Shown piece by piece: positions 3,758 to 64,000 of a stretch of 64,000 nt of DNA. The notes under the pieces were generated by a model that was given only the letters and a program-made list of their open reading frames with translations, had not been told where the DNA came from and searched no databases. Location: positions 384,001 through 448,000 of the forward strand of contig CAWGMK010000010.1 of NCBI GenBank assembly GCA_963823655.1. Reading direction: 5' to 3'. The translations under genes were made by a program, and so were the position numbers. Source of the stretch: an uncultured Bacillota bacterium (GTDB lineage Bacteria; Bacillota; DTU025; MWDF01). Positions within the stretch are counted from its first letter, which is position 1. Every line of letters begins with the position of its first letter.

Positions 3758-3778
3758 GAATCGGACAAGTCATGATGT

Positions 3779-3810
3779 GCGCCAGAGGATAAGCCCTCTG
3801 GCGCCTTTTC
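3779..3810 (+). terminator. intrinsic terminator of the por operon
   Basis: GCGCCAGAGG-ataagc-CCTCTGGCGC followed by CTTTTC. Confidence 0.75.
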
Positions 3811-3844
3811 ATCTAAAGCGGGAAATTTCATACAACTATGTATA

Positions 3845-3873
3845 TTGACTATTAACATTCACAGTGGTAACAT
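3845..3873 (+). promoter_or_regulatory. sigmaA-type promoter for the T-box/serS transcript
   Basis: TTGACT-17 nt-TAACAT, about 10 nt before the T-box. Confidence 0.7.
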
Positions 3874-3883
3874 AACCTATACT

Positions 3884-4205
3884 AACGCGATGAATGGGAA
3901 CAGTAGACGAAGAAGCGCCCTACAGAGAGCCGGTAAAGCAATAGGCCTTCCAAAGAGACCAAGCAGGTAATGATGGGAAATGACCGATTTGCAAAAGGTG
4001 TGAGACCGGTGGGAGCAAGCGTCGAATCCGCCCAGGAGCGGCCGGCCGAACAAGAGTAGGCTGTGACGGGAGCGCCCGAAAAAGCGCAACGAGAGGGTAT
4101 GCTTAGGTAGGCGATTGGACCTACTTGGCATACCAAGCGGGGTGGTACCGCGAGTATCATGTAACTCGTCCCCGTGCGGCAGATGACCGCACGGTATTTT
4201 TTTAT
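3884..4205 (+). promoter_or_regulatory. T-box riboswitch, serine-specific
   Basis: GA motif GCGATGA, AGTA, AGAGAG bulge (3924), GGTGTGA loop (3997), specifier GAA-UCC (Ser, 4027-4029), T-box GGTGGTACCGCG (4141), terminator CCGTGCGG/CCGCACGG plus T-run; lies upstream of serS. Confidence 0.93.
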
Positions 4206-40600: not shown

Positions 40601-43600
40601 CTACTTGAACTTGTACGCCACCGACGACAGGTCCCAGCAGGGCGAGATACAGTTCAGGGTGGGCGAGGGGACCAGCTCATTCAACATCAGCTGGGGCAGC
40701 TGGCAGCAGTACGCGCAGATGGTGCAGTACACTCTTGCGGCAGGAGACGGCCAGAGGAACATATGGGTCAGCTTCAGAGACGTCGCAGGCAATGTATCGC
40801 AGCCCTACAGCGCAAGCATAATGCTTGATACCAGGACCCCTTCCATAACCGGCCTGCAGGCTTACAACATAACCACGACAAGCGCGGTCATCGGCTTCAG
40901 CACGAACGAGCCCTCGTTCGGTAGCGTGGAGTACGGCACGAGCTCGTTCTCGCTGATCCTGTCCGTGGGAGACGGCGAGGCGAAATCAGCGTCAGTAAGC
41001 TCCGTTGCGCCAAGCTCGGTCATCATAACACCGAACCCCGTCGCGACAAGGCCGGGCATGACCAGTTTCAACGTAAACATCACTGGCCTCAAGGCGAGCA
41101 CAACTTACTATTACAGGGCAGTGGCGACCGACCTTGCCGGCAATACGTCGGTAACCCAGGTCATGAACTTCAGGACACAGGATCCAGTAGTGGCAGATAC
41201 CCAGGCGCCTACGGGGTCAATAAGCATAAATGACGGTTCACAGTACACAAGGTCCAGATATATCTATCTCAACTTGTTCGCGCAGGACAACAGGTCGCAA
41301 CAGGGAGAGCTCCAGTTCAGGATAGGCGAGGGCATTAGCACCTTCAACATCAACTGGGGCAGCTGGCAGCAGTTCAACTCCAAGGTGCTATACACCCTGG
41401 CGGCGGGCGACGGCCAGAGGAACATATGGATTACCTACAGGGATGCTCAAGGCAATGTGTCGCAGCCATACTCGGCCTCTGTAGTCCTGGACACCAGGGC
41501 TCCCGGCATATCGGGCCTGCAGGCATACAATATTACGACGACCTCTGCAATCGTCGGCTTCAATACGAACGAGCCGGCCTTTGCAAGCGTCGAATACGGC
41601 ACATCCTCCTTCTCCTTGAGCCTGGTATCGGGCGAAGGCGATGTGAGATCGGCGTCCATAAGCTCCGTTGAGCCAAGCTCGGTCATAATCACGCCGAATC
41701 CAGTAGCGTCCAGGCCGGGCATGACGAGCTTCAATGTCAACATAACAGGGCTTAAGGCCAACACGACTTACTACTACAGGGCTGTGGCCATGGACATCGC
41801 CGGCAATACGACGGCGTCCCAGGTCATGAGCTTCCAGACGAGCGCGCCTGTGCCGACGGATACGACGGCGCCGGCAGGTACGATCGTGATAAACGACGGC
41901 ACCAACTACACAAGGTCCAGGTACGTCTACTTGAACCTCTCGGCGAATGACAACATCACACAGCAGGCCCAGTTGCAGTTTAGAATCGGCGAGGGAGCCA
42001 ACAGCGTCAACATCAGCTGGGGCAGCTGGCAGCAGTACACATCAAGGGCATCTTATGCGATGACTGCAGGTGACGGCCAGAAGAACATATGGATCACCTA
42101 CAGGGATGCGGCCGGCAACATCTCTCAGCCTGCCGTAGACTCGATAGTCCTCGATACTAGAGCGCCTTCCATAACGAACCTGACGGCGGGCAACATTAGC
42201 CAGAGCTCGGCGGTGGTGAGCTTCAATACCAGCGAGCCGGCCTATGCAAGCGTCGAATACGGCACGTCCTCATTCTCCCTGAGCCTGGTATCCGGAGAGG
42301 GCGACGTGAGGTCCGCATCGATAAGCTCAGTTGAGCCCAGCTCGGTCATAATCACGCCGAACCCGCCGGCAACAAGGCCCGGGATGACGAGCTTCAGCGT
42401 GAACCTCACAGGGCTCAATGCGAATACTACTTACTACTACAGGGCCGTTGCGATGGATATCGCGGGCAACACCACGGCATCCCAGGTAATGAACTTCAGG
42501 ACGGGTGCACCCGTGCCTACCGACAGTACGGCGCCAACGGGTTCGATAAGCATCAACGACGGTACAAGGTACACAAGGTCCAGGTACGTCTACTTGAACC
42601 TGCTCGCACAGGACAACATGACGCAGCAGGCTGCGCTTCAGTACAGGGTGGGCGAGGGGACCAACAGCTCCAACATCGGATGGGGCAGCTGGCAGCAGTT
42701 CTCGGCCAAAGTCGCGTTCACAATGTCCGCGACCAACGGCCAGAAGAACGTGTGGGTAAGCTACATGGATGCTGCCGGTAACACTTCCCAGCCTTACGTG
42801 GCGTCGATAATCCTGGACACCATAGCCCCTTCGATAAGCAACCTGACGGCAAGCGCCATAACGCAGTCATCGGCGACGATCAGCTGGAACACGAACGAAC
42901 CCACGCTCGGCAGCGTAGAGTTCGGGAGCAGCCCGTCATCGCTCAATTCGGTATCGGGAGATGCAAGCGTAAGGTCCGCTGCTGTAAGCTCAGTACAGCC
43001 CAGCACAGTGATAATTACGCCTCAGACAATCTCCTCGAAGACGGGCAATACGTCTTTCAGCCTCAATATCACAGGGCTTACGGCGAATACTACGTACTAC
43101 TACAAGGCCGTTGCAATGGACCTTGCAGGAAACGCCACGGCATCGCAGACGGCAAGCTTCAGGACCTCGTCGATATCGGCGCCCCCTGTTGTGACCCCGC
43201 CTGTCATCACGCCTCCAGTCGTAGTACCGCCCATAGTGCAGCCGCCTGTGGTAACGCCTCCCGTAGTAGTGCCGGGTTCGCCTACGGCTCTGATTAACCT
43301 CGCGGGCAAGTCGCAAGGGGCGAAGGCGGACTCCAACGCATGGAACAGCGGCAATGTAGCGAGCATGGCGAACGACGAGAGCGCATCCTCCTTCTGGGAA
43401 TCCGGCTCGACCCCTGATGATTCAGGTTCCGAGAGGCTAATCATTAATTTCGGCAAGTCCGTCACATTGAATACGGTAATACTGAAAGTCTCAGCCGCTG
43501 GCTATCCGAAGGCCTTCCGCCTGATGGCAGTCCTGAACAACAAGTGGACCCAGGTGGCCGAATTCAAGGACGGCAAGGTCAAGGGCAACACCAACGCACT

Positions 43601-43721
43601 CGAATTGCTCACGTTGAGCTTCAATGCGATAACGACCACATCCATAAGAATTGAGTTCCTCGATGTGGTGAAGAAGGGCGATCTGGTAAGGATATACGAA
43701 ATAGAAGCATATAAGAAGTAA
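37686..43721 (+). CDS. 2011-aa secreted protein: TPR array, alternating Ig-like/fibronectin type III domains, Pro/Val linker, C-terminal discoidin (F5/8 type C)-like domain
   Basis: Signal peptide; AWYGLGRAY-type TPRs; repeated D..APTGSI.INDG and W.T.E...VEYG...LTGL.A.TTYYY domains; C-terminal NLA..A.A.S..MAND...FWES...LIINFG...IYEIEAY. Confidence 0.8.
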   Translation: MRTRRPMALIVTAVVVFTLFIGAGSAMAQISTHLQNGERFITEGNWASAVIEFRNALSYEAQNTTAWYGLGRAYEGLSGAKGAFDRKIEGLTGIAESSDWALTAEASSNLNEAVKAFTNAVSNFPSNVSAIAPLARAQFMLGRTQEALLTLEKAISPFQLNNDALAHMLYIGTLSGDAQRVAYYAQIARANQQAMSDPAVLHALSAIEYAKGDYKAAEAILTPLMYRYDIGYIPLKAMGDVLLAQGRPLEAVNFYRYAAGLNDKASGAWLMYADIMSLSGDAVNAASAYRSALLANPSSVWAKFGLARSLAETNDPNGALGLLKDIVETGNAANLDSIYTYKGQVERTLGQLQQAEISLKSALVLNSANSVAANYLNLVQGEMRTRGMSSLQFDGVSIPAFDGFVINGGAAFTNNRKVVLNVNTSASYVAFKNENSDYSAMNFKFGSTASYDWLLSDIDGKKSVQMRTREGLFSVAKDGPVKEIMLDSTAPVISFKETKFSSGNVFLMTLQATDAATGIGSFWLSVDGIDWKYYRWIGGSFPFSLTNVPANKIVSGAIVDGAGNFMPFQSDLGSTVPGPVITNVTVQETGTGKVTVKWNTDRLADSYVEYKLGQAANTVGAPTSTKTHSVDITGLVTGQTYQFKPISTDSYGLRAEGQPVSLLISMPASGPVISNINVTNVSASAATISWTTNVAAYGYVVYTSAGQQFTSQQVGPSQSAQVSLTGLTQIASYQYQIVAWDAAGRQSYSDPRTFTTLSSDRVAPVISTLRISGGVTTTGNRNVGIELFATDDSGYVTEMSFRDDATSWGAWQTYNSYASFILSDKDGQRTIYARVRDTQGNISAEASVRVTLDRTAPKISWVGAQVGSDMADVTWDTDENANSWVLFGSSQFSLNSTMGQADSTRSHKVMLTGLLSNTTYFYKVMSRDATGNSSESSVSSFRTQAAVQSDTKAPTGSITINDNSQYTRSRYLYLNLYATDDRSQQGEIQFRVGEGTSSFNISWGSWQQYAQMVQYTLAAGDGQRNIWVSFRDVAGNVSQPYSASIMLDTRTPSITGLQAYNITTTSAVIGFSTNEPSFGSVEYGTSSFSLILSVGDGEAKSASVSSVAPSSVIITPNPVATRPGMTSFNVNITGLKASTTYYYRAVATDLAGNTSVTQVMNFRTQDPVVADTQAPTGSISINDGSQYTRSRYIYLNLFAQDNRSQQGELQFRIGEGISTFNINWGSWQQFNSKVLYTLAAGDGQRNIWITYRDAQGNVSQPYSASVVLDTRAPGISGLQAYNITTTSAIVGFNTNEPAFASVEYGTSSFSLSLVSGEGDVRSASISSVEPSSVIITPNPVASRPGMTSFNVNITGLKANTTYYYRAVAMDIAGNTTASQVMSFQTSAPVPTDTTAPAGTIVINDGTNYTRSRYVYLNLSANDNITQQAQLQFRIGEGANSVNISWGSWQQYTSRASYAMTAGDGQKNIWITYRDAAGNISQPAVDSIVLDTRAPSITNLTAGNISQSSAVVSFNTSEPAYASVEYGTSSFSLSLVSGEGDVRSASISSVEPSSVIITPNPPATRPGMTSFSVNLTGLNANTTYYYRAVAMDIAGNTTASQVMNFRTGAPVPTDSTAPTGSISINDGTRYTRSRYVYLNLLAQDNMTQQAALQYRVGEGTNSSNIGWGSWQQFSAKVAFTMSATNGQKNVWVSYMDAAGNTSQPYVASIILDTIAPSISNLTASAITQSSATISWNTNEPTLGSVEFGSSPSSLNSVSGDASVRSAAVSSVQPSTVIITPQTISSKTGNTSFSLNITGLTANTTYYYKAVAMDLAGNATASQTASFRTSSISAPPVVTPPVITPPVVVPPIVQPPVVTPPVVVPGSPTALINLAGKSQGAKADSNAWNSGNVASMANDESASSFWESGSTPDDSGSERLIINFGKSVTLNTVILKVSAAGYPKAFRLMAVLNNKWTQVAEFKDGKVKGNTNALELLTLSFNAITTTSIRIEFLDVVKKGDLVRIYEIEAYKK
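40533..43184 (+). repeat. four tandem 663-bp (221-aa) intragenic repeats, each an Ig-like + Fn3 pair
   Basis: Units start at 40533, 41196, 41859 and 42522 (exact 663-nt period); protein highly similar, many synonymous differences. Confidence 0.92.
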
Positions 43722-43791: not shown

Positions 43792-44963
43792 TTGGGAGTC
43801 ATAAAACTTCAAAATGGCAGGGACAAAAGGGTCAGGGCGGGGCATCTCTGGATATTCGACGGTGAGATCGAATTCTATAAAGGACGCCCTTCCGGGAGAC
43901 ATCGCCGAAGTTGTCGGCAGCCACGGAACATTCCTGGGCAAGGCGATGATCAGCGGATCATCGAGCCTGAAAGCGCGCATGATGACGAAGCTCAACGTCG
44001 ATGTCGACGACGCTTTCTATATGAGGGCGCTAAAAAGCTGCATCGCGCACAGGAAGGCCGTGGCAGGGGGCGCATCCTGCTACAGGGCGGTCAACAGCGA
44101 AGGGGACATGCTTCCCGGCCTTATAGTGGACGTATATGAGGACGTATTCGTGCTTCAGGCGACGACTCTGGGAATGGACATGAGGAAGGCCAAGCTTTCG
44201 AGGATGCTTTCGGAGCTTTTGGGGCTAAAGAAGGCCTATGAGCGCAGCGACATGCCGATTTGCAGGTACGAGGGCCTTGAGCCGGTCGCAGGTTTCATAT
44301 CCGAGCCTTTCGACACGAAAGTCAGGATGCACGAAAACGGCATCATGATGGACATTGATGTGGCGACCGGGCAGAAGACGGGCTATTATCTCGACCAGAG
44401 GGAGAACAGGCTCGCCGCCTCCCAGTACACAAACGGCGGGGATGTGCTCGACGCCTTCTGCTACAACGGAAGCTTCGGCCTTTTAGCGGGGCTTAAAGGG
44501 CGCAAGAAGCGTACACTTCCTGGACATGAGCGAGCCGGCCGTCGAACAGGCCAAGGCCAATGCCGCCTTAAACGGGCTTGAGGGGATAAGCAGCTTCAAG
44601 GCCGCGAATGCCTTCGACGAGCTCAACCACCTCGTCAAGGAGGGCGCCTCATACGACCTGGTCATGCTGGATCCGCCTCCTTTCACCAGGAACAAGGAGG
44701 CCATCGAAGGGGCGATACGAGGCTACAAGGAGATCAACCTCAGAGGCATGAAGCTGACAAAGCCAGGAGGCTACCTTGTGACTTCGAGCTGCTCGCAGCA
44801 CATAGGCATCGAGCTTTTCAAGGAAGTCATCGCCATGGCGGCGGCGGACGCCGGAAGGTATCTCCAGCTTGTAGAGTCAAGATCGCAGGCGAGGGATCAT
44901 ACGGTACTGCTTTCGATGACGGAGACCGACTATCTGAAGTGCCTGATATTCAGAGTAATTTAA
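43792..44963 (+). CDS. RlmI/RlmK-like class I SAM-dependent rRNA methyltransferase, two apparent +1 indels near 43873 and 44498
   Basis: GHLWIF PUA start, SEGDMLPGLIVD, GQKTGYYLDQRENR, VLDAFCYNGSF, YDLVMLDPP, TSSCS, ETDYLK. Confidence 0.88.
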
Positions 44964-51059: not shown

Positions 51060-51536
51060 GTGGACAGGATGGTCGACAGGCCCAGCTGGGACAGATACTT
51101 CATGGATATAGCGGTGATGGTCGCGACTAGGTCCACCTGCATGAGAAGAAGCGTAGGTGCCATCGCTGTGAACAACAGGCGGATACTCGCCACAGGCTAC
51201 AATGGCACGCCAAAGGGGCTCAGGCATTGCACCGAAGTGGGCTGCATAAGGCAGGAGCTGGGCATACCGTCGGGCCAGAGGCACGAGCTTTGCCGCGGCC
51301 TGCATGCGGAGCAGAACTGCATAATACAAGCGGCGGTCCACGGAGTGCAGCTGGACGGCTCGACCATATACTGTACTTTCCAACCCTGCGCAGTGTGCGC
51401 CAAGATGCTCATAAACGCCGGCATATCGGAGGTCGTCTACGAGGGGGGTTACCCCGACGAGATGGCTGTGTCGATGCTTAATGAGGCGGGGGTAAAGCTA
51501 AGAAGGCTAGAGCCGGAAGCGGAGGTTGGCGGCTGA
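51060..51536 (+). CDS. dCMP deaminase family protein
   Basis: [33 protein letters not shown]. Confidence 0.92.
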
Positions 51537-52585
51537 TGAATTTAATATTGATCGCCTTTTTCCTTGCGACGGCACTGTCGCTGGCATTGACTCCGGCGGT
51601 CGGATACCTTGCCAGGAAGACCGGGGTAGTCGACGTTCCGCGCGGAAGGCACGCGCATGAGAAGCCAATACCGCTGATGGGCGGCCTTGCCATTTTCATC
51701 GCCTTCGTGGCAACCGTACTTATGAGGCTTGGCGTTACAGGCTGGGTCCTGGGGCTTATCCTGGGAAGCAGCGTGATCATGCTCACAGGCATAGTAGATG
51801 ACATCTTCGAGCTGAAGCCGCTTGCGAAGCTTGCAGGCCAGATAACAGGCGCCGTCGTCATGGTGGCGATGGGAGTGCGCATGGAATTCGTGTCCAACCC
51901 GTTCGGCGGGATAGTGCACTTAAGCTGGCTTTCCTATCCTTTCAGCGTAATTTGGATACTGTCTTTCGTCAATGCCATTAACCTCATCGACGGGCTGGAT
52001 GGGCTAGCCTCGGGCGTAGTCGGCATAGGCTCGATGTCGCTGGGCCTCATCGCTTTCAGCAAAGGGCACATAGATGTCGCGATACTCGCAGTCATCCTTT
52101 CAGGCTCCTGCATCGGCTTCCTATGGCACAACTTCAACCCCGCCCAGATTTTCATGGGGGATACGGGAGCGCTCTTCATAGGCTCGGTCATGGGAGGAAT
52201 CAGCGCGGTCGGAGCCATAAAGGGCCCTGCCACGATGACTATCGCCGTCCCGGTCGTGATATTGGGCGTTGCCGTAGTGGATACGGCACTTGCCATATTA
52301 AGGCGCATCGAGAACAACGTGAGCATAGGCGAGGGAGATTATGACCACTTCCATTACTGGCTGGTTAAGCACGGCCTAACGGTCAGACAGGCGGTCGGCA
52401 TAATCTATGCGCTGACTATTGCCCTTTCAGTAGTCGCCTACTTCATATCCAGCCAGAAATCGACCCCCGCGGGCTGGTTTATTGCCTTCGGCGCGTTTGC
52501 GGTGCTCATCATCGCAGGTGCGATGGTGGGGATGATAAAGCTCGGCAGGCTGGGCAGATGGATCAAGGAAAGGCGGAAATCCTAG
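51536..52585 (+). CDS. undecaprenyl-phosphate GlcNAc-1-phosphate transferase (WecA/TagO, MraY family)
   Basis: D.P..RH.H..P.P..GG, GIVDD, NAINLIDGLDGLA, NFNPAQIFMGDTG, D.DHFH. Confidence 0.92.
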   Translation: MNLILIAFFLATALSLALTPAVGYLARKTGVVDVPRGRHAHEKPIPLMGGLAIFIAFVATVLMRLGVTGWVLGLILGSSVIMLTGIVDDIFELKPLAKLAGQITGAVVMVAMGVRMEFVSNPFGGIVHLSWLSYPFSVIWILSFVNAINLIDGLDGLASGVVGIGSMSLGLIAFSKGHIDVAILAVILSGSCIGFLWHNFNPAQIFMGDTGALFIGSVMGGISAVGAIKGPATMTIAVPVVILGVAVVDTALAILRRIENNVSIGEGDYDHFHYWLVKHGLTVRQAVGIIYALTIALSVVAYFISSQKSTPAGWFIAFGAFAVLIIAGAMVGMIKLGRLGRWIKERRKS

Positions 52586-53728
52586 ATGCCAAGGGTCATG
52601 GCGGTATTCGGAACCAGGCCGGACACCATAAAGATGATGCCTGTCATAGAGGCCATAAAGGCGCATCCAGCAGATTTCGAGCTGTTCTCATTGTCGACCG
52701 GCCAGCACAGGCAGATGCTTGACGACGTCCTGAGGGTGTTCGGCGTGGAGCCGGACCTCGACTTGGACATCATGAGGCCGGACCAGACCCTAAGCGACAT
52801 CGTTACCAGGGGGCTTCCGGCCATAGGCGCTGTTATCAAGGACATTTCACCCGATCTGGTGCTTGTGCACGGCGATACCTCCACGGGCTTTACCGCCTCT
52901 CTTGCGGCGTTCTACGCAGGCGTCAAATCGGCCCATGTAGAGGCCGGCTTGAGGACATTCGATAAATGGAACCCATTCCCCGAGGAGATGAACAGGAAGC
53001 TCATAGGTTCCCTTGCCGACTTGCACTTCGCGCCGCTAAAAACCCACAGGGCGAACCTGCTGGCAGAGGGCGTAAAGCCCGATGGCATCTACGTGACGGG
53101 AAACACTGCGGTCGACGCCGTACTGAGGACGTCCGAGAAGGTCAAAGACCTCGAGAATGCCGAGCTGGAAGGCGCGATATATGGCTCCGGAAGGCTGATA
53201 CTGGTAACCGCGCACAGAAGAGAGAGCATCGGCGCAGGGATCGAGGGCATATGCCTTGCCGTGAAGAGGATACTGGGCAAATACCGGGATGTCAGGATAT
53301 TGTTCCCCGTGCATCCTAACCCCAGGGTCTCCGGTACAGTCCACAGGATACTCGACGGCGAAAACCGGTGCCACCTGGTGAGCCCGATGTCCTATCCGGA
53401 CATGGTGCTTGCCATGAAGAGCTCGTACTTCTGCATGAGCGATTTGGGCGGCATACAGGAGGAGGCGCCTTCCCTTGGAAAGCCCGTCCTTGTGCTGCGG
53501 GAGTGCACCGAAAGGCCCGAGGGGCTGGCCGCAGGCACGCTAAAGCTTGCCGGCGTATCGCCCGACAGGATATTCGAGCTGGCAAGCCTGCTTCTTGAGG
53601 ATGAGGGCGAATACAGGAAGATGGCGGCAAGCCGCAACCCGTTTGGCGACGGCAAAGCCTCGGACAGGATAATACAGGCGATTTTACACAGCGCGGGCCA
53701 GGCCTCAAGGCCGGCAGATTACGAATAG
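52586..53728 (+). CDS. wecB: UDP-N-acetylglucosamine 2-epimerase (non-hydrolysing)
   Basis: FGTRP, TGQH, VHGDT, HVEAGLR, PFPEEMNR, TAHRRE, GGIQEEAP, TERPEG, NPFGDG. Confidence 0.93.
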   Translation: MPRVMAVFGTRPDTIKMMPVIEAIKAHPADFELFSLSTGQHRQMLDDVLRVFGVEPDLDLDIMRPDQTLSDIVTRGLPAIGAVIKDISPDLVLVHGDTSTGFTASLAAFYAGVKSAHVEAGLRTFDKWNPFPEEMNRKLIGSLADLHFAPLKTHRANLLAEGVKPDGIYVTGNTAVDAVLRTSEKVKDLENAELEGAIYGSGRLILVTAHRRESIGAGIEGICLAVKRILGKYRDVRILFPVHPNPRVSGTVHRILDGENRCHLVSPMSYPDMVLAMKSSYFCMSDLGGIQEEAPSLGKPVLVLRECTERPEGLAAGTLKLAGVSPDRIFELASLLLEDEGEYRKMAASRNPFGDGKASDRIIQAILHSAGQASRPADYE

Positions 53729-53741
53729 TCAACCGAAAGGC

Positions 53742-55007
53742 GTGAACGATATGGAACTTAGCACCTTGATCGTCGAAGGCGGAAGGAGAATGGAAGGAAG
53801 CGTGAGGGTGGGCGGGGCCAAAAACTCGTCTCTGCCCCTTATAGCCGCAGCTTTGCTTCCAAACGGCGTGTCCGTCATTGAGGACGTACCGAGGCTTAAG
53901 GATATAGAGACGATGCGAGGCGTCATCGAGGCGCTCGGGGCGAGGATAATCATGGACGGCAATGTGATGTCTGTGGACTCCTCCGGCATCAACGGCAACG
54001 AGCCCCCCTACGAGATGGTGAGATCCATGCGGGCATCTTTCCTTGTGATGGGCCCGCTTCTTGCCAGGATGGGCAGCGCCCACATATTCCAGCCGGGCGG
54101 CTGCGCGATAGGCGCAAGGCCCATTGACCTGCACCTGAAGGGCTTCGCCGCCCTTGGCGCAAGCGTTGATATGAGCGGAGGCGTCGTCAAGGCAAGCGTT
54201 GCCGGAAGGCTTAAGGGCGAGAGGGTCTACCTGGACTTTCCTAGCGTGGGCGCCACGGAGAACATAATGATGGCGGCAGCTACAGCCGACGGCAGGACCT
54301 TAATTGAAAACGCAGCGAGGGAGCCTGAAATCGTTGACCTGGCCAACTTCCTGAATAAAATGGGCGGCAAGGTCAGAGGCGCCGGCACCCCTGTTATAAG
54401 AATTGACGGAGTCGAAAACCTGGCTCCGACCTCCCATACGGTCATACCCGACAGGATAGAAGCGGGCACTTTCATGATAATCGCAGCTACGACGCAAGGC
54501 AGCCTCTACATAGACAATGTCGTCAGCGAACACTTGAAGCCACTGGAGGCAAAGCTATTGGAGGCGGGAGCCCAGATAGAGAACTTCGAAGGCGCCATAA
54601 AAGTGAGCGCCGACAAGAGGCTCAAAGCCGTCGATATTACGACGATGCCCTACCCCGGTTTCCCGACCGACATGCAAGCGCAGCTTATGGCACTTCTTTG
54701 CACGGCGGACGGAACATCCCAGGTCACCGAGAACGTCTTCGAGAACAGATTTATGCACGCCCCGGAGCTTTCAAGGATGGGCGCTAATGTCAAGATAACC
54801 GGAAGGACCGCCATAGTCGAAGGCGTACCGAAGCTCACCGGCGCACATGTGAACGCGACTGATTTGAGGGCCTCCGCGTCGCTTGTTACCGCGGCCCTGG
54901 TGGCCGAAGGAGAGACCCACATACACAACATTTCGCATCTGGACAGGGGATATGAGAACTTCGAGGGGCGGCTTGCCAAATGCGGCGCCAGGATGAGAAG
55001 GGAGTAG
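53742..55007 (+). CDS. murA: UDP-N-acetylglucosamine 1-carboxyvinyltransferase
   Basis: GAKNS, MRAS, PGGCAIGARP (catalytic Cys), SVGATEN, PDRIEAGT, PGFPTDMQ, DLRA, LDRGYE. Confidence 0.97.
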   Translation: MNDMELSTLIVEGGRRMEGSVRVGGAKNSSLPLIAAALLPNGVSVIEDVPRLKDIETMRGVIEALGARIIMDGNVMSVDSSGINGNEPPYEMVRSMRASFLVMGPLLARMGSAHIFQPGGCAIGARPIDLHLKGFAALGASVDMSGGVVKASVAGRLKGERVYLDFPSVGATENIMMAAATADGRTLIENAAREPEIVDLANFLNKMGGKVRGAGTPVIRIDGVENLAPTSHTVIPDRIEAGTFMIIAATTQGSLYIDNVVSEHLKPLEAKLLEAGAQIENFEGAIKVSADKRLKAVDITTMPYPGFPTDMQAQLMALLCTADGTSQVTENVFENRFMHAPELSRMGANVKITGRTAIVEGVPKLTGAHVNATDLRASASLVTAALVAEGETHIHNISHLDRGYENFEGRLAKCGARMRRE

Positions 55008-55012
55008 ATTTG

Positions 55013-56700
55013 ATGCGCAAGCCCAAAATTAACTCCCTGATGCTCCTGCTGGCCGGGCTAATGGCAATTTCGCTGGCTGCAGTGTCCAATGCCGCGCCCA
55101 GCTATATGGACCCGAAGGACGCGAAGGCGGGCATGTCGGGCGAGGGGTTGACCGTATTCTATGGAAGTGAGCCATCGCCTTTCAGCTTCAGGGTGATTGC
55201 AGTCACAAAAGGAGATTCCGGCCTTTCGGACCTTATTATCATCAAGGTGGGTGGCAAGCAGGTGGACGAGATTGGCGGCATCGCGGCGGGAATGAGCGGG
55301 AGCCCATGTTACATCAGGCGACAGGCTCCTGGGGCGCTGTCGCATGTGCTTGAGGGCCCGGATGCCAGCATTGGAATAATCACTCCCATGAGCCAGATGG
55401 TCAAAATACTGGAAGCCTACAAGTTCGCAAGCCTGTACGAGACTATAGAGGTAGAAGGCTGGGGGACATTCAAACCTGCGGCCGGGCCCATGTGGGTGGG
55501 AGGACTTAATTCCAGGGGTTTGGGCCTTCTGCAGTCCCGCCTTGGGGTTTTGGGCTTCGCAGCTGCCCCTCTTCCGCTCGGCACAGGCATCAGCATAGGC
55601 CAGAATACGCCCTATGCTGCAGGCTCTTCCATAGCGGTGCAGTTGTGCAACGGAGACATAGAGGCCGGAAGCATCGGCACTGTGACATGGTCGGACGGCA
55701 AGAGCTTCCTTGCCATGGGCCATCCCTTCATGAACCTCGGCGAAGTGGGATTCCCGATGTCGAAATCCCAGGTGCTTGCAGTGCTCCCTTCGGATGATTT
55801 TCCCTTCAAGCTGGGAACTTTCGAGAATCCCGGAGCTATAGTGACCCAAGACCGGGCCTCAGGCATAGCGGGGCTCATCGGACTTGAGGCACAGATGACG
55901 CAAGTGCAGATCACAGTAAACGACATGCAGACCGGCAGGAAGAGCACCTCCAATTTCAGCTGCGTGCCGGATGCCAGGCTCATCGAGGGGCTAATAAGCT
56001 CCGGGCTCCTATCGGTCGTGGACAGCACGATCATGAGGGTGGGAGAGGGGACGGCATTCATAACGGTATCCATGGACGTATCGGGAATGAAGCTTCTCAG
56101 GGAAGATATGGTATGGTCTGCCTCGGACATTGCAGGCTACGCATCCTTCGAGCTGTCGGACATATTAAGCATGATTCTTGGAAATGACGTCGACGAGCCT
56201 GCAATAGCAGACATTTCGGTAAGCCTGGACATCGCGCCCGTCAGGCTGACATCCTCGATACTGGAATTGAAGCTTCCGGAAGGGGGCTTCAAGGCCGGCG
56301 AATCTAGCTCGGATCGGAGTAGTGATAAGGCCCTTCCGTGAAGTAGCCTATACGGAATATGTCGAAATCGAGATCCCTCAGGGGGTTCAACCCGGAAATA
56401 TCGTAGTCGTTGTACGAGGAGGTTCCTCCGAGGACGATGCGGAAGTATATACTATTGTGGATAAGGTCGGCGAAACCGAAGGCGTAGCGCTAGTAGACAT
56501 GCTGGAGGCAATAGAAGGCGCCGAGCAGAACAACGAGCTGATAATCGAGATCAGATACGCCCTTGACGAGGAGTCGACTGGCACTGACGAAGGTTATGTG
56601 GAAACGGAATCCGAGGAGGAGGAGCCCCTCTACTCCGCGGGAATTGTGATTTCAGAGCATCATAAGAGGGTATGTTTCAGTGGAATCAGAGATAAAATAG
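55013..56700 (+). CDS. secreted SpoIVB-like peptidase S55 domain protein; compensating indels near 55317-55345 and further indels near 56304 and 56660; end inferred
   Basis: Signal peptide; GGIAAGMSGSP, GSIGTVT, FLAMGHPF, PFKLG, QDRASGIAG; IRPFR...EIPQ...VVRGG continues in the next frame. Confidence 0.72.
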
Positions 56701-56718
56701 GGGCTGAATCGATAAACG

Positions 56719-56745
56719 GGAACGGACTCGGTCCTTCCAGACGTT
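56719..56745 (+). promoter_or_regulatory. candidate ECF sigma-factor promoter upstream of bamA
   Basis: GGAAC-N18-CGTT. Confidence 0.3.
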
Positions 56746-56829
56746 TCTTCTTTAGTGACTTTAAGCTTAAGAGGAGCCGTATGAGCCGGGACCGGACAAA
56801 AGTTAGCGCAACCGTCAGGAGGTACTAAG

Positions 56830-58539
56830 ATGATAAGAGGCGGCAAAGGCAGGGCAGTCATAATCCTTTTGGCAGCCATGGGTCTAGTCGTAGCAGCGTC
56901 TGCTCTGGCATCGGCCCAGTCTTACGGCAGGCTTGCCAGCATAGAGATCGAAGGCAACAGGAAACTGGATGCCGAATTTATAAAAAGCCTGATGCCATTG
57001 ACCATAGGGATGGATTTGACACAGGAGGACCTGGACAAGACCTTCGCGGCGATGCAGGCAAGCGGATATTTCGCCGATCTGGGGGCGCGTTCGCAGTCTT
57101 TCCTGGGCGGAATCAAGCTCATTGTCACGGTGGAGGAATTCCCGGACCTCAATACGATAGCAATCTCCGGCAATACGCTAATAAGCACGGAGCAGCTGCT
57201 ATCTCGCATGAAGTCCACTGTTGGCAAGATGATCAACATAAACACCGTCAAGGAGGACCTGGACGGGATAATCGCCCTCTACAAGGAGGATAACAGGATT
57301 GCCACCGTCCAACCCGACATCAGCATGGACGGGGTGCTGACCATAGTTATAATCGAATGGAAGGTCGGCTTGGTACAGATTACCGGAAACGAGAAGACGA
57401 AAGAGGAGATTATCAGGAGGAACATCAGGGTAACAGAAGGCGACTTCATCGATACCCAGGTCCTTTCTGATGACAGCCGCCGCATATACAACACGGCGAT
57501 ATTCGAGGATGTGGGAGTCGAGCTTCTGCCCAAAGACGAGGGCCCGTATGCCGACATCACATTCGTGGTCACGGAGACTAAGACGGGGCTTTTCAATGTC
57601 GGCGCAACTTACAACTCGGCTGAAGGCCTCATCGGCTACATAGAAGTATCCGACAAGAACGTATTCGGCTACGGCATCACAGTTTCCGGCAAGCTGGAGG
57701 CGGGCGGCAAGGAGAAGCAGATCCTCGGCGAATTCAGCATATCTACGCCGTACCTGTTCACAGACAAGCTCAGCGGAGGCCTCGAAGTGTACCGCAAGAT
57801 GGCCAACAAGACCATAGACATAGATGAGGACGAAGAGGAGAACGACCTCGACGATCTCATCTACAAGCAGTACAGGACCGGCGGCAGCATATGGATGGGA
57901 TACAATTTCGACCTGTACACCAAGGCGGGTGCGTCTTTCAGGGTCGATTTCATTGAGAACCAGTCTGAGTTGCCATCTCCCGCAGTGCCGGCCGATACAT
58001 CCACCAGGAGCATCACGCTGTCTCTTAACAGGGATACCAGGAACGACTTCATTAACCCCACCAAGGGATACACCATCTTCGCCTCTACGGAGTTCGCAGG
58101 CGGCATTCTAGGCGGGGACGACAATTTCACCAAGCTCTTCACCCAGCTGACGGGCTACTATGAGTTCAAGGACGGCCAGGTGATAGCGGGGCGCCTCGGC
58201 GCTGGCGCCGGTATAAAGCCGCTTCCCTCACATGTTAAGTTCCTGCTTGGCGGCGGGGACAACCTAAGAGGCCTCAAAGAGCCCATAGAGGGCGACTATA
58301 TAGTATTCGGCAATGCCGAGTACAGGTTCCGCATCTATGAGGAGATCGTCGGCGGCGTGGTATTCTTCGACCTCGGCCAGGCCTGGAACAAGGGCGAGGG
58401 CTTCACATTGGACGGGATGAAGTACGGCGTCGGCATAGGCGCAAGGGTCACAATACCGATGCTCGGGATGATAAGGCTCGACTACGGCATCTCAAACGGT
58501 CAGGGCCGGGTGTATTTCGGCTTCGGTCATACGTTCTAA
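56830..58539 (+). CDS. bamA: Omp85/BamA outer-membrane protein assembly factor (about 3 POTRA domains + barrel)
   Basis: Signal peptide; POTRA-like IEIEGN, IAISGN, VQITGNEKTK; DTRNDFINPTKG, LGGGDNLRG, NAEYRF, FFDLGQAW, IRLDYG, terminal FGFGHTF. Confidence 0.9.
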   Translation: MIRGGKGRAVIILLAAMGLVVAASALASAQSYGRLASIEIEGNRKLDAEFIKSLMPLTIGMDLTQEDLDKTFAAMQASGYFADLGARSQSFLGGIKLIVTVEEFPDLNTIAISGNTLISTEQLLSRMKSTVGKMININTVKEDLDGIIALYKEDNRIATVQPDISMDGVLTIVIIEWKVGLVQITGNEKTKEEIIRRNIRVTEGDFIDTQVLSDDSRRIYNTAIFEDVGVELLPKDEGPYADITFVVTETKTGLFNVGATYNSAEGLIGYIEVSDKNVFGYGITVSGKLEAGGKEKQILGEFSISTPYLFTDKLSGGLEVYRKMANKTIDIDEDEEENDLDDLIYKQYRTGGSIWMGYNFDLYTKAGASFRVDFIENQSELPSPAVPADTSTRSITLSLNRDTRNDFINPTKGYTIFASTEFAGGILGGDDNFTKLFTQLTGYYEFKDGQVIAGRLGAGAGIKPLPSHVKFLLGGGDNLRGLKEPIEGDYIVFGNAEYRFRIYEEIVGGVVFFDLGQAWNKGEGFTLDGMKYGVGIGARVTIPMLGMIRLDYGISNGQGRVYFGFGHTF

Positions 58540-58624: not shown

Positions 58625-59083
58625 ATGAAGAACCTTTTTAGAAACACGACGGCAGTAATAATGGCAATCGCTTTGGTGGCAGTGGCCGCTACAATCAGCA
58701 ACCTTACGACAGGCAAGGCAGGCGCCGCCCCCGACTACGCGGTAATAGGCCATATAGATACCGACAAGCTCAACTCCGATTTCCCGATGCTCAAGACGGC
58801 ATGGGAGGCGGTCGCGGCCAAGAAGGCAGAGCTTGAGAAGGAACTTAACAAGAAGGCCGAAGGGCAGGACGCCGACGCTAAGGCGAAGCTTGTTGAGCAG
58901 TTCAACGTGCTTTACAACGACTACGCCAAGAAGACACTCGATCCCGCCTACGCCAAGCTCGAGACGACAGTCAAGGAAGTGGCCAAGGAAAAGGGAGTGA
59001 CCGTGATCCTCAACAGCTCGATAGTCATCGAGGGCGGCGTCGACATGACCGATGCAGTCCTGGCTAAGGGCGGCCTTAAGTAG
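58625..59083 (+). CDS. ompH: OmpH/Skp periplasmic chaperone
   Basis: IGHIDTDKL, coiled coil, VAKEKGVTVILN, GGVDMTDAVL; directly after bamA. Confidence 0.82.
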   Translation: MKNLFRNTTAVIMAIALVAVAATISNLTTGKAGAAPDYAVIGHIDTDKLNSDFPMLKTAWEAVAAKKAELEKELNKKAEGQDADAKAKLVEQFNVLYNDYAKKTLDPAYAKLETTVKEVAKEKGVTVILNSSIVIEGGVDMTDAVLAKGGLK

Positions 59084-59130: not shown

Positions 59131-59155
59131 CACATAAGTGACAGGAGTTGCCTCA

Positions 59156-62100
59156 ATGAGGAAGCTTGACCGGTATGTGGCGCGGGAGTTCCTAGGCCCA
59201 TTCTTTGCCGCAATAACCGCGTTCATCGTCATATCCCTCAGCGTCCAGCTCTTCTGGCTGGCCGAAATGGTCGTGGTCAAGCACACCCCCCTTGCGACCG
59301 TATTGAAGCTCATACTCTACAACATACCCACAGCACTGGTACAAGTTCTCCCCTTCGCCACCCTTTTTGCGGTCCTGCTAGGATTGGGCAGGCTAAGCCG
59401 GGACAGCGAGCTTTCGATAATGAGAGCCGCAGGCCTCAGGCTTTCCAGGATCGCAGCCCCCATGATATTCATAGCGCTTCTTATCAGCGCATTCGGCTTC
59501 TATATGGGCGACCAGGTGGCCCCCAAGGCCAATTTGGAATCGCGCAACATCGTAAACAGGATGATCCTGGGCGACAGCATACCGGGGATTGAGAACAACG
59601 TCTTCTTCCGCGGGCCCGACAACAAGTTCTTCTATATCGGCCGGGTGAGCGAGGACAGGGCGACTGTCCAGGACATCATGATATATGACATCGGATACGG
59701 GAAGTACCCGCAGCTGATAACAGCGGCCAAGGGGCAGGCGGACTCTGGAGTATGGGTATTCCTCGACGGCAACATCCATGAGTGCGGTTCGGACGGAAGG
59801 GTAGTATCGACGGCCCATTTCGATTCGCTGGAAATCAGGATGGAGCGCGCGGTCACAGATTATACGAATTCCGGCAGGACAACCTCCGAAATGTCGATGA
59901 AGCAGCTTAAAGAGAGCATCTCGCTCTTCACGAAAAGCGGCATCAAGGCCAAGAACCTTCTCATAGACTACTACCTCAAGATCGCCCAGCCCATCTCATC
60001 CCTGATTTTTGCAATACTGGCAGTGCCTCTTGCAGTACGAAGCCCCAGGCGCGGAGGGGCCGTCTACAGCATCGCCGCCGGCATACTTATCGTTACCTTG
60101 TACTTCATATTCGAATCGGTGATACGCTCGTACGGAATGCTCCAGGCGACAAGGCTTCAGCCCTGGATGGCGGCATGGTCCGCTGACATCATCTTTATGG
60201 TGGTGGCCCTCATCCTTCTTATAAGGGCGGATTCGAAGAGGATGAGAAAGCGCATCCGTAAGCCCAAAGGGCCGGCAACAGCCATTATCCTGCTCATAGC
60301 CCTCGTACTTCTTCTGCAGCCGTCAATTGCGGCTGCGGCCGGGACGAATGTCAAGGTAACAGCCGAAAGGCTGGTTTATGAGGGCTCGGACATATGGCGC
60401 GCCGAGGGCAAGGTTGAGGTTTCCTTCGATGATGTCGTGGTGAGGGCTGATACCGCAAGAATCGACCTTACGACGAACAAGGCCGAGCTCACAGGATCGG
60501 TTACAGTAGAAATGAAGGGCAGCGTCATCTCCTCGGGCCTTGCCGTCGTGGACATAAAGACTAAGGAAGTCACTTTCGGGGCGTTCGAAGGGCGGGTAAG
60601 CGACGAGCGGGTAGAAGGGTACATCTACATCAACGGGGCCGGGTTCACCGAGAAGGACGGAGACTACAAGCTGACGGATGGCTATCTGACCACATGCGAC
60701 CTGCCTCAGCCTCACTACAGGATAGAGGCCAAAAGCATAGAGTTCACCGAAGCTGACGTCATAGTCGCAAAAGACGTTTCATACTTCGAGGGCAATATTA
60801 GGCTCCTGCGCCTTCCTTCGCTGACCATACCTCTTAGGGAGGAGGACAGGATCATCCTTCCTGAGTTCGGCTGGAGCGGAATAGACGGCGCATACATCAA
60901 AACTACGATGAAAAGGCAGCTTAACGAGGACAACAGGCTGACACTAAGGCTGGATTTCTTCACGGTAAGCGGCCTGGGGCTGGGCCTGAAGCACGAGTAC
61001 GGCATAGAACGGCAAAGGTGAATGGATACTACTCCCTGTATGTGCTAAAAAGCCTGATGAACCCCGCCTCCGACTGGACCGCCGAGATCTCGCAGACGCT
61101 TAAGCTGCCTTTGGATATCATAGCGACCGGCAAGTATTCTTACAGGAATACAACAAATGCGAGCCTTGCCAAATCGGAGGAGCACTTCGCCGAGCTCAAA
61201 CTGAACAGGAGCGTGGAGGACGACAAGACCGCGATTGCCGCATCTTACCGATACAAGGACGCAGTAGCCGATACATCCACCTTGAACTTGTCTGCATCCC
61301 ACTCCATGACGCTCTTAGAGGATATCAAGCTGTCGGGAAGCGTAAGCTACAGGAGGACCGAGATAAACGACGCTTTGAATTTCGAGAGCATGACTTACAA
61401 GGCAACTTTGTCCCACCAGACGGAACAGGGAAGGCTTACGCTAAACGTCCAGGCCTCCGAAACGATGAACGAAAGCCAGGAAGTAGTCGTCGCTTCGTTG
61501 AAAAGGCTGCCTGAGCTGCAAATAGAGCTTTTCAAGATGCCTATCGGGAAGCTGCCTTTAAACATCGGCGTCAAGATGACTGCCGGCAGGTACGTGGAGA
61601 GGATTCTCAATACTGACCCGATAGAGTTCTCTGGATGCGGGCAAGGGCGAGGCTGATATTAGCCTTGCCATCGACAGGGTGGACCTTTGGGGATTCGCCA
61701 CATACGATCTGGCCGGCACATTTATCGGCAGCCTCTACTCTACCGGGGATTCAAGGGCGTACCTTGGCGTAGCGACTTCGCTGAATGTGACTCCGATAAA
61801 GGGATGGGGCATAAAGCTGTCGTACGATTACTTGAAGGGCTTCGGTTCGAGCCCATACAGGTTCGACGCGCTTAACGAGAAGAACAAGATTGCCCTGTCT
61901 ACTTCCGCTTCGTTCTACGGCGTAACTGCTTCTGCTTCGTCGGGCTACGACTTCATCAAACTGAAGTACGACAGCCTCTCCGCGGGGCTAGGCTACAAAT
62001 TTGAGGACAAGTACCAGGCGGATGTCACAGCGAAGCTTTCCCTGCCGGATTTCGGGATACAGACTATTGTAGGAAGGCTCACCATAAGCCCTATCGAGGA

Positions 62101-62398
62101 AGTAAGCCTGAAGTTCGGCCTAGAGTACAATGGTTCGCTCAACAAGATTAGCAAGATCGAGACGAGCGGGAGCCTTAGCATACTCAAGGAGTGGAAGGTA
62201 GGCTGGGCGGTAATATACGATGTGGCGAGGGAAGGCTTGAGGAAGGCGGACTTCGCGCTGACAAAGGATTTGCACTGCAGGGAGATAACGGCAGGCTACC
62301 AGGTCGTTGACAAGAGGTTCTTCGTCAACTTCAAGTTCAAGGCCTTCCCTGACATACCGATCGGGATCGGCTCGGACGACTGGAGCCTATTTAACTAG
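59156..62398 (+). CDS. LptF/LptG (YjgP/YjgQ) permease in frame with an LptD-like jellyroll + beta-barrel, about 1080 aa; indels near 61009 (-1) and 61629 (+1)
   Basis: LDRYVAREFL, LPFATL, RLSRDSEL..MRAAG, LQPWMAAW (LptF/G); then VTAERL, GKVEV, LTTCDLPQPHYRIEA, ILPEFGWS..DG (LptD N-domain) and DLHCRE near the barrel end. Confidence 0.75.
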
Positions 62399-62425: not shown

Positions 62426-63070
62426 GTGAATACCAGGGTGGGGATAGCGATATTCCTGATTTTCGCAGCTCTCGTGGGCGTGTCCTACTATTACGGTTTC
62501 GTTAGGCAGGAGCCCTCAATAGAGGCGGCGCAAGAGGCGGTTGACGACAAGGACCTTCCTGAAGTGCTCATAAAGGGGCTTACGATATCTAGCTGGACCG
62601 GCGGCGCAAGGGTTTGGGAGATGAAAGCCGACAGCATGGAGCTGCCCCGATTCGGCAGGAACGCCACGCTCACAGGCATCAAGGAAGGCACCATATTTAG
62701 GGATGATGTAGCTTATCTGGGCTTTTCCGCGGGCAGGGCGGCCGTCGACGGCAGGAACAGGATGCAGTTTTCGGAAGGCGTGCTGATCATGTCTCAGGGC
62801 AAACCCCTGATGGTAACCGAGTCGATGGTATGGGACCCTGTGACGCAGCTGGTCAACATCCCCGGAGAGACCGAGATAACGGCGGACGGCAGCAAGGTGA
62901 CGGCGAAGAACCTTACGGTGGACCTTAAGGACGAGTACATTTCTACGACCGGCGATATAATCGCCCAGCAGGGCGACAGCGTAAAGATAACGGCAGGGAA
63001 CATGAGGTATTCGGTCACCAGGCGCGAGATGGAGATCATCGGGCCTTTGACGATAACGATAGACCTCTAG
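62426..63070 (+). CDS. lptC: LptC-like membrane-anchored jellyroll protein
   Basis: N-terminal TM anchor, G.RVWEMKADS, TESMVWDP, beta-rich; lies before lptA-lptB. Confidence 0.65.
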   Translation: MNTRVGIAIFLIFAALVGVSYYYGFVRQEPSIEAAQEAVDDKDLPEVLIKGLTISSWTGGARVWEMKADSMELPRFGRNATLTGIKEGTIFRDDVAYLGFSAGRAAVDGRNRMQFSEGVLIMSQGKPLMVTESMVWDPVTQLVNIPGETEITADGSKVTAKNLTVDLKDEYISTTGDIIAQQGDSVKITAGNMRYSVTRREMEIIGPLTITIDL

Positions 63071-63085
63071 GAAAGGGGTGCACAG

Positions 63086-63748
63086 ATGATAAAGAGCAGA
63101 TCAAGAACGGCAATCGCCGCGGCACTGATCATCCTGGTACTGGCCTCTACGGCGCTTGCGGCCAAACAGGTCAAGATCACAGCCTCCAAGAAGCTCAGCT
63201 ACCAGGGCGCCAAAGGCGACGCAATGGTAGAGGGCGACGTAAAAATCGAATACGACACTACCCTGATTACAGCCGATAAAGTGATTTTCAACAGCGACAA
63301 CAAAACGGCTAGGGTGGACAGCGGCGTGCGCATAGTGCAGGACAATATCGTCATCACGGCCAATGTCATGAACGCCGACTTTAAAACCGAGAAAGTCATG
63401 GTCAGCGGCAATGTTAAGCTGGAGATGACAGAGACTCTTGCCGAGAAGGATGCCAACGGCGTCGCAAAGAAGGATGTCGTGCTGCTTTTAACTTCAAGCA
63501 TGACTATTGATATCAATACAAACGACTTCACGGCGTCCGGCGGAATAATAATAACCAAGGACAAACAGAAGGCACAGTCCGGAAGCGCTGCATACATCGA
63601 GGCTGAGAAGAAGATAACCCTTACGGGAAATGTCAGTATCGAGACCAGCGACGGCGATACCGTAAAGGCCGAAAAAGCGGTCATCTATACGGACAAGGAT
63701 ACTTTCGAAGCCGAGGGCGAACGCATAGAGATCAACTTCATCGTATAG
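63086..63748 (+). CDS. lptA: LptA/OstA-like periplasmic bridge protein
   Basis: Signal peptide ALA-A; repeated ITA, EGDVKI, SGNVKL, LTGNVSI jellyroll motifs. Confidence 0.72.
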   Translation: MIKSRSRTAIAAALIILVLASTALAAKQVKITASKKLSYQGAKGDAMVEGDVKIEYDTTLITADKVIFNSDNKTARVDSGVRIVQDNIVITANVMNADFKTEKVMVSGNVKLEMTETLAEKDANGVAKKDVVLLLTSSMTIDINTNDFTASGGIIITKDKQKAQSGSAAYIEAEKKITLTGNVSIETSDGDTVKAEKAVIYTDKDTFEAEGERIEINFIV

Positions 63749-63764: not shown

Positions 63765-64000
63765 ATGGGAATTAGGGCGGTCAAGCTTACGAAGTCGTTC
63801 TCCGGCCGGAATGTGGTGGACGGGGTCGACATCAACCTGGAGCGCGGGGAGGCAGTGGGACTTTTCGGACCCAACGGGGCCGGGAAGACCACGACCTTCT
63901 ACATGCTCCTGGGGCTTGAAGTGCCCGATTCCGGCCTTATCGAAGTGGACGGCCGCGACGTCACCGAATTGCCCGTTCACATGAGGGCCCAGCTTGGCAT
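63765..64000 (+). CDS. lptB: LPS-export ABC ATPase LptB, 3'-truncated by window edge
   Basis: MGIRAVKLTKSFSGRNVVDGV...GE.VGL.GPNGAGKTTTFYM...DVTELP.H.RA.LG, after a GGAGG SD. Confidence 0.88.
   Translation, partial: MGIRAVKLTKSFSGRNVVDGVDINLERGEAVGLFGPNGAGKTTTFYMLLGLEVPDSGLIEVDGRDVTELPVHMRAQLG

Follow-up and report, generated by a model that had tools for sequence, protein, structure and literature searches.

We analyzed a stretch of 64,000 nucleotides (hereafter the window; positions 384,001 to 448,000, forward strand, of contig CAWGMK010000010.1 in GenBank assembly GCA_963823655.1) from an uncultured Bacillota bacterium (GTDB lineage Bacteria; Bacillota; DTU025; MWDF01). Near the end of the window lies a gene in which a complete permease of the LptF/G family, part of the lipopolysaccharide (LPS) transport system Lpt, continues without a stop codon into an outer-membrane protein of the LptD type. 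A segment resembling a signal peptide stands at the joint between the two halves.

A single gene for LptF/G and LptD

A profile search of the window assigned residues 12–363 of open reading frame 59138..61021 (627 amino acids, aa) to the LptF_LptG family (PF03739, E = 1.4e-85). The match scored 287.9 bits against a cut-off of 27.9 and covered profile positions 1–353 of 353. The frame starts, as do its orthologs, at the ATG at 59156 (MRKLDRY), and it remains free of stops past the permease and into the LptD-type part. The signal-peptide-like segment occupies residues 357–395; that is, it follows six transmembrane helices and does not stand at the N-terminus of the precursor. The predicted signal peptidase I site falls at about 60338–60343. 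Further on, cysteines occur in the motifs TTCD (60695–60697) and DLHC (62276–62278). A preliminary description of the window had reported a complete LptF/G running stop-free into a basic/hydrophobic/AxA segment, a jellyroll and a barrel, and all of these landmarks were confirmed at the positions it gave (Table 1).

Beyond the first frame the gene carries on in two others (61018..61656 and 61679..62398). The three pieces were colinear with residues 1–618, 622–830 and 841–1079 of L006, an intact 1079-aa ortholog from the same genus. Comparison with contigs from other sequencing runs revealed three surplus single bases in the window, at two sites. Without these bases the gene formed an open frame of 1079 codons that aligned to L006 at 68% identity with 0 gaps. 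The preliminary description had arrived at about 1080 aa after correcting two indels; its length was right, whereas its count of indels was not. The comparison contigs were 90–99% alike, came from four runs of three studies, and none spans the whole gene. Because no run contained more than 0.34 of the sampled words and no contig spanned the gene, we attributed these contigs to related strains and not to the source sample. The alignments suggest that the three surplus bases are most likely assembly errors.

We examined conservation by a protein search over 41 genomes, which included the window's own genome and 20 others from the same order (4 families, 8 genera). All 20 contained a match, and in 19 of them the matched frame had no stop from the permease across the joint as far as about query residue 620. 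The remaining genome (G020) ends inside the permease at a contig end and is uninformative on the joint. Open frames were 1049–1142 aa long where the contig permitted, and 683–1056 aa where a contig end truncated them (G003, G014, G017, G019). Twenty distinct orthologs could be aligned across the joint, with loops of differing length. Another 17 fused loci, from a named genome collection, had joint segments identical to those of this set and were not treated as independent cases. Two contigs of one study (X1 record 2 and X2 record 11) crossed positions 60215–60245 with 0 gaps; X4 record 19 stops 5 bases beyond the ATGA at 60242–60245 and was excluded from the bridging contigs.

Three frame-breaking bases within the gene, and neighboring genes that also appear split, are what one might expect if a sequencing error had joined two genes or if the gene were dead. 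The preliminary description had itself cautioned that one spurious base before the ATGA would create the fusion, and that separate genes in relatives would refute it. The breaks are located away from the joint, they are missing in the contigs of related strains, and a full-length frame results once the three bases are removed. The bridging contigs show no indel, separate genes were not found within the order, and the TGA at 60243 is not kept even within the genus (L006 reads AAG ATG GGC there). Because the joint is open in 19 of the 20 other genomes and is bridged by two gap-free contigs, an assembly artefact or pseudogene is extremely improbable. We concluded that the LptF/G-LptD fusion is a real gene that is conserved throughout the order.

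The folds of the two halves were examined with AlphaFold2 on L006, using an alignment of 19 fused orthologs (mean pLDDT 75.8). The permease was modeled as helices at residues 2–141, strands at 149–228 and helices at 248–360, which amounts to six helices, the third and fourth of which are separated by a jellyroll. The joint (residues 362–396) had a pLDDT below 50 and was not packed against the permease; it contained a short helix at 375–385. Past the joint the model contained a second jellyroll and then about 26–30 strands downstream of residue 565 (pLDDT 80–95 for residues 565–1063). A Foldseek search against the PDB returned LptD chains of LptDE complexes at the top (5iv9_A, E = 3.8e-25, 802 columns), and the best 14 rows listed were all LptD. 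LptG and LptF of LptB2FG ranked after them (6mjp_G, E = 1e-16, TM-score on target 0.66).

At the level of sequence profiles, PF03739 was matched by 19/19 orthologs. The LptD profiles stayed below their cut-offs in the window, both for LptD_N (PF03968; 17 bits versus 20.4, E = 0.0073) and for LptD (PF04453; 16.3 bits versus 22.4, E = 0.0064). Among the 19 orthologs, matches at E ≤ 0.01 were obtained by 5 for PF03968, 5 for PF04453 and 8 for DUF3769. Thus, the LptD half is marginal by sequence alone, and its LptD fold is supported by the structure match of the predicted model. The TTCD and DLHC cysteines (C514 and C1040) were invariant in 19/19 orthologs.

Table 1. Features of the lptF/G-lptD gene and its neighbors (window positions).
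Feature	Position	Strand	Basis or remark
bamA (Omp85, POTRA repeats)	56830..58539	+	Profile match; upstream neighbor
skp/ompH chaperone	58625..59083	+	Profile match; upstream neighbor
Shine-Dalgarno-like AGGAG	59143..59147	+	8 nt upstream of start codon; anti-Shine-Dalgarno duplex −6.9 kcal/mol
lptF/G-lptD fusion, whole	59156..62398	+	1079 codons once three surplus single bases are omitted; intact orthologs 1079–1110 aa
LptF/G permease domain, six transmembrane helices, periplasmic jellyroll between helices 3 and 4	59171..60226	+	PF03739; AlphaFold2 model of ortholog; Foldseek
Basic cytoplasmic loop RADSKRMRKRIRKPK, equivalent of n-region	60224..60268	+	Sequence; net charge +8
Predicted internal signal peptide, h-region and c-region GPATAIILLIALVLLLQPSIAAAA (…LQPSIAAAA)	60269..60340	+	Position homologous to N-terminal signal peptide of unfused LptD
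LptD N-terminal beta-jellyroll	60341..60847	+	Weak PF03968; Foldseek to full-length LptD
LptD-type large beta-barrel	60848..62395	+	AlphaFold2 model; Foldseek 5iv9_A; PF04453 weak
Frame break 1, two surplus single bases (61010, 61020)	61010..61020	+	Versus one related-strain contig (run X2)
Frame break 2, one surplus base	61629..61629	+	Versus contigs of runs X1 and X2, one each
lptC (transmembrane anchor and jellyroll)	62426..63070	+	PF06835, E = 3.9e-12
lptA with its own N-terminal signal peptide (…ALA/AKQ)	63086..63748	+	PF03968, E = 1.3e-9
lptB ATPase, continues beyond the window	63765..64000	+	Complete in L071 765–1484

Origin and proposed processing of the linker

More distant relatives carry the two genes unfused, and we compared 14 such loci (nine Bacillota-type metagenome-assembled genomes, MAGs, one Limnochordia and four Atribacterota). 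In 14/14, lptD lies after lptF/G on the same strand. The unfused lptF/G stops soon past the sixth transmembrane helix (…RSEKVR or …AEKK), and the first possible lptD start follows the stop by 3–17 nt in 9 loci and by 88–392 nt in 5. Inspected by eye, the unfused LptD begins in all 14 with a basic/hydrophobic/AxA signal peptide, which is placed directly before the same first jellyroll strand. Given that position in unfused LptD, this comparison of sequences identifies the segment inside the fused genes as the former signal peptide of LptD. The ATG at 60242, which sits inside the basic loop, is likely the ancestral lptD start.

The joints of the 20 distinct fused orthologs retain the character of such a peptide. 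A positive n-region, a hydrophobic h-region and small residues at −3 and −1 were all recognized by eye. The loop, delimited by a script whose delimitation was off for L013 and L018, had a net charge of +2 to +10. The c-region presented Ala at −1, Ala, Val, Ser, Ile or Thr at −3, and frequently Pro, Gly or Ser 4–6 residues before; examples are AMA/R, AAA/Q, ASA/A, ALA/A, AVA/K and VFA/G (slash, predicted cut). LptA of the same genomes has a similar c-region (ALA/AKQ), whereas the LptC anchor ends YYYGFV without one.

We lean towards the reading that the fusion encodes a precursor, which signal peptidase I cuts into a seven-helix LptF/G that forms a homodimer and a normal outer-membrane LptD. 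In this model, adjacent lptF/G and lptD genes would have fused with the N-terminal signal peptide of LptD retained as a linker. The six-helix permease would enter the inner membrane, leaving its C-terminus on the cytoplasmic side, and the basic loop would remain inside, while the former signal peptide would insert N-in/C-out as a seventh helix and start the export of LptD. Such a topology suits cleavage because LptF/G ends in the cytoplasm in LptB2FG structures. Signal peptidase I, for which the window's own genome has one gene (PF10502), would then cut past the small-x-Ala motif (…IAAAA/G in the window). The products would be a permease that keeps the former signal peptide as its seventh helix and a free LptD of about 685 aa, the latter assembled in the outer membrane by Skp and BamA, which are encoded directly upstream. 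The permease homodimer would act with LptB, and separate LptC and LptA proteins would complete the bridge. The preliminary description had supposed that cleavage fixes the stoichiometry of the two products; this is doubtful, because a homodimer of fusions would give two LptD per transporter.

Several observations weigh against cleavage, and most of them would favor a trans-envelope chain that stays whole, with a permanent seventh helix and with LptD tied directly to the pump. The frame is continuous in all orthologs, and in some of them the hydrophobic stretch measures about 19–22 residues, which is long enough for a stable anchor. In the available text on Thermotoga, the corresponding fusion is treated as one protein enriched in the outer layer, with no cleavage reported there (PMC10160955). 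Veillonella parvula MlaD illustrates that a single chain can occupy both membranes, and it provides a precedent among diderm Firmicutes for a chain reaching from the inner to the outer membrane (PMC10665443). In addition, a small-x-small pattern rule applied after the hydrophobic core was passed by 42 of 44 fused proteins (the misses being L020, which was offset, and P0064, with Lys in the c-region), but most LptC anchors passed too; the rule was therefore not discriminating, and we dropped it as a test of cleavage. Nevertheless, an uncut chain is difficult to reconcile with the absence of a spacer. With only 0–5 residues between the c-region and the first jellyroll strand, the jellyroll would be pinned to the inner membrane while the barrel must reach the outer one. 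Moreover, lptC and lptA are still separate genes, and in the E. coli bridge the N-terminal edge of the LptD jellyroll must stay free for pairing with LptA. The AxA-type c-region is also kept across lineages at about 30% overall identity, although an anchor has no need of one. We therefore regard an uncleaved chain as unlikely. A bolder version, in which the chain is left uncut or is cut only in part, has a similarly small chance of being correct. Were it true, one polypeptide would occupy both membranes in an order that retained its outer membrane after losing lipid A, and would serve as a hard-wired conduit whose cargo is some lipid or lipoprotein but not LPS. Its seventh helix would then play the part at the permease gate that the LptC helix plays in E. 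coli, and atypical diderms would have arrived at this solution three or more times.

LptD could also arise by internal initiation at its old start, ATG 60242, which would make the read-through fusion a by-product. This ATG is present in the window and in 6/6 other orthologs of the genus, and a Shine-Dalgarno-like AAGGG or GAGGG lies upstream of it, with duplex energies that match those of the true start (−4.7 to −7.2 versus −4.4 to −6.9 kcal/mol; 13 of 18 loci covered). However, the Shine-Dalgarno-like run is 12–15 nt upstream, which is far, and the Lys and Arg codons of the loop themselves give purine runs. Ortholog L010 has no in-frame ATG, GTG or TTG between the sixth transmembrane helix and the hydrophobic stretch, and the loop itself offers none in L009 or L014. 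Given such families with a loop free of start codons, internal initiation would be possible in the genus but not general, and it leaves the loss of the stop codon across the whole order unexplained. We consider it quite improbable as the source of LptD.

Copy number, lipid A genes and gene neighborhood

The number of permease genes bears on the homodimer that the cleavage model contains. The preliminary description had noted one LptF/G and no LptE in the window, and this result extended to the whole genome: PF03739 was present at exactly one locus in 21/21 genomes of the order (12 of them at least 90% complete), and LptE (PF04390) had no match in the window's own genome, which is 97% complete. 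A second PF03739 match in G006 was a below-cut-off fragment, and one in G007 fell on that gene's own masked start. In contrast, two LptF/G-like places were found in 4 of 5 other diderm families of the phylum. Because there is a single copy per genome, the permease would be homodimeric, as the preliminary description had thought possible. A complex prediction with two permease copies (residues 1–362) gave a score of 0.01 and was run without controls; it weighs neither way.

A point that the preliminary description overlooked is that genes for lipid A synthesis were not found in the order. LpxC (PF03331) was found in 0/21 genomes of the order, whereas it was present in 5/5 families of the phylum with unfused lpt genes and in 4/4 unfused Bacillota/Limnochordia genomes reached through their loci. 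The C-terminal domain of LpxA (PF13720) showed the same distribution (0/21 genomes of the order, 5/5 unfused families). No full-length LpxB was detected in the 21 genomes, and it was found only in the five unfused families. KdtA (PF04413) matched in 1/41 genomes and was uninformative because it is missing even from LPS-positive relatives. The outer-membrane gene cluster of the window contained no lpx genes.

Weak partial matches to LpxB did occur in 10/21 genomes of the order (E = 1e-4 to 5e-8); the proteins are about 420 aa long, and about 70–130 of the 374 positions of the profile were covered. The window's own genome had no such match, and the only one in its genus was below the cut-off. 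In six genomes of families f2 and f4 (G007, G009, G010, G012, G015, G018) the match was located on the lpt contig, 8–9 kb past lptF/G. We read these matches as another glycosyltransferase and not as LpxB.

Taken together, the searches make the host's order look like diderm Bacillota without LPS, even though they have bamA, skp, lptC, lptA and lptB. With no lipid A synthesis genes found in the order, Lpt probably transports some other lipid, or a lipoprotein, instead of LPS. Three considerations temper this reading. The absence of a match in MAGs falls short of proof, with 12 of the 21 genomes at least 90% complete. Since all fused Bacillota belong to one clade, any link between fusion and loss of LPS counts as a single event. 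Lastly, the one Atribacterota genome with unfused genes (completeness not stated) gave no LpxC match, which makes it a counter-example to a strict rule linking fusion with LPS loss.

The cluster around the fusion has the order murA, SpoIVB-like gene, bamA, skp, lptF/G-lptD, lptC, lptA, lptB, DUF3084 and SLH protein. The last two lie beyond the window and were seen on L071, where a DUF3084 protein (1497–2837) and an SLH-domain protein (3100–4194) follow lptB. The SLH-domain protein is a possible OmpM-like outer-membrane tether, and past its gene are several open reading frames of 130–726 aa without a Pfam family. At 51536–53728, immediately before murA and the outer-membrane cluster, the window encodes a family-4 glycosyltransferase (TagO/WecA-like) and a UDP-GlcNAc 2-epimerase. 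These genes may be the start of a pathway for a secondary cell-wall polymer, which could serve SLH-domain tethers. A 2011-aa open reading frame at 37686–43721 combines TPR repeats, fn3, Big_13 and several N-terminal-type domains of PhoD/purple acid phosphatases.

Overlapping frames were also observed elsewhere in the window. A SpoIVB-related frame (54980–56341; peptidase S55, weak match), between murA and bamA, overlaps a frame without a family (56322–56828), and the two may be a single gene broken by another indel. Likewise, a PUA-like open reading frame (43814–44578) overlaps a methyltransferase-like one (44526–44960) that is read in another frame; the two resemble a single RNA methyltransferase gene that an indel has divided, consistent with an indel-prone assembly.

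Relation to known systems

The fusion architecture is already published for Thermotoga maritima and occurs widely in protein databases. When 1.84 billion representatives were searched with a profile, 29,858 matched at E ≤ 0.001. We examined 27 of the 150 matches listed, and all were 1004–1218 aa long and covered the permease, the joint region and the barrel. Three of the 27 came from the host's order, and in the other 24, which represent other lineages, the joint likewise contained a hydrophobic segment with a c-region of small residues. Word-index protein searches returned 7 and 17 proteins, with little beyond close relatives. ESM Atlas clusters of 1077–1424 aa that combine LptF_LptG with LptD_N and are labeled Bipolaricaulota and Thermotogota serve as leads only. 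Many other proteins among the matches listed, of 750–850 aa (e.g., P0043, P0065, P0068), contain two tandem LptF/G domains, i.e., an LptF-LptG fusion.

A FastTree phylogeny of the LptF/G domain (124 sequences, midpoint-rooted, supports not weighed; rows without a full permease domain excluded and two fused rows mislabeled) placed fused forms in at least three clades, with the host's order as sister to unfused Bacillota. This topology suggests that the fusion originated repeatedly and that the gene of the host's order may have arisen separately from that of Thermotoga. One locus, L045 (JBLNCC010000089.1), comes from a MAG named 'Betaproteobacteria bacterium', and its lptF/G-lptD region is near-identical to those of the Bacillota MAGs L047, L048 and L062; its label or binning looks wrong.

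Literature searches, which left supplements and subscription papers outside their scope, yielded no paper describing the fusion in Bacillota or Limnochordia. They likewise yielded none on an internal signal peptide, or on a Bacillota order with BamA and Lpt but without lipid A genes. In its available text, PMC11448272 covers only Bacillota that are without both BamA/Lpt and lipid A genes. The new element in our data is that searches of 21 genomes of the order found neither LpxC nor LpxA. A whole uncultured order of Bacillota keeps BamA, Skp and the full Lpt bridge while lipid A genes were not found. Thermotoga and Borrelia offer parallels, and the finding prompts one to ask which cargo Lpt transports in these bacteria. 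Our results also bear on annotation. Because databases name the fusion genes only 'LptF/LptG family permease', LptD can seem missing from such genomes, and annotators should be warned that it may be hidden inside permease-named genes.

The canonical Lpt machine is E. coli LptB2FGC-LptA-LptDE, in which LptD has interdomain disulfides. Both halves of the fusion match the E. coli folds, lptC, lptA and lptB adjoin it, and the invariant cysteine pair in the jellyroll and at the barrel end, known here from sequence, resembles the cysteines of those disulfides. The E. coli system differs in having two LptF/G proteins where the host's order has one, which is fused to LptD; LptE, LpxA and LpxC were not found here, and the partial LpxB matches were weak.

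Other diderm Firmicutes provide partial parallels. A single LptF/G, presumed to form a homodimer, was reported for Acetonema longum (PMC13018214), and Negativicutes and Halanaerobiales likewise have a single LptF/G, no LptE and an outer-membrane cluster with bamA and skp, as far as the available texts describe (PMC13018214, PMC5007114). Reports on diderm Firmicutes agree on the absence of LptE (PMC13018214, PMC5007114, PMC10665443). In contrast to the host's order, A. longum, Negativicutes and Halanaerobiales produce LPS, and their LptD is a protein of its own, reported to have 16 strands in A. longum (PMC13018214, PMC5007114), whereas the barrel found here is large and fused. V. parvula MlaD is, like the fusion, a lipid-transport protein of a diderm Firmicute whose single gene encodes both a part in the inner membrane and a barrel in the outer one. 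According to the text available (PMC10665443), MlaD contains a long helical spacer and fractionates with both membranes, whereas the fusion has no spacer and carries a signal-peptidase-type motif at its joint. LPS-free Borrelia likewise keeps an LptD homolog for other cargo, namely surface lipoproteins, but its genes are separate and its phylum is unrelated (as described in the available parts of 10.1101/2022.12.21.521298 and PMC10353723).

For the proposed processing itself, our literature search for bacterial polyproteins with an internal signal peptide returned only viral and unrelated work. The cytochrome b/c1 precursor FbcH of Bradyrhizobium, which that search did not retrieve, is said to split at an internal signal-peptide-like segment, though its function is unrelated.

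The nearest relative in architecture remains the T. maritima 'pABC permease' (G4FGC1), which joins LptF/G, a jellyroll and an LptD-like barrel in one polypeptide (PMC10160955). The Thermotogae precedent of long YjgP/Q proteins mentioned in the preliminary description is real. T. maritima, like the host's order, has an outer layer without LPS synthesis genes (PMC10160955), and as a control genome it gave a PF03739 match and no LpxC match. Compared by description, the Thermotoga protein belongs to another phylum, has an LptA-like part that is also named, and is presented without discussion of an internal signal peptide in the text available (PMC10160955). The conserved internal signal peptide offers a simple, testable model, in which a bacterial membrane polyprotein would be split by signal peptidase, and this model could apply to the Thermotoga protein as well as to the fusion described here.

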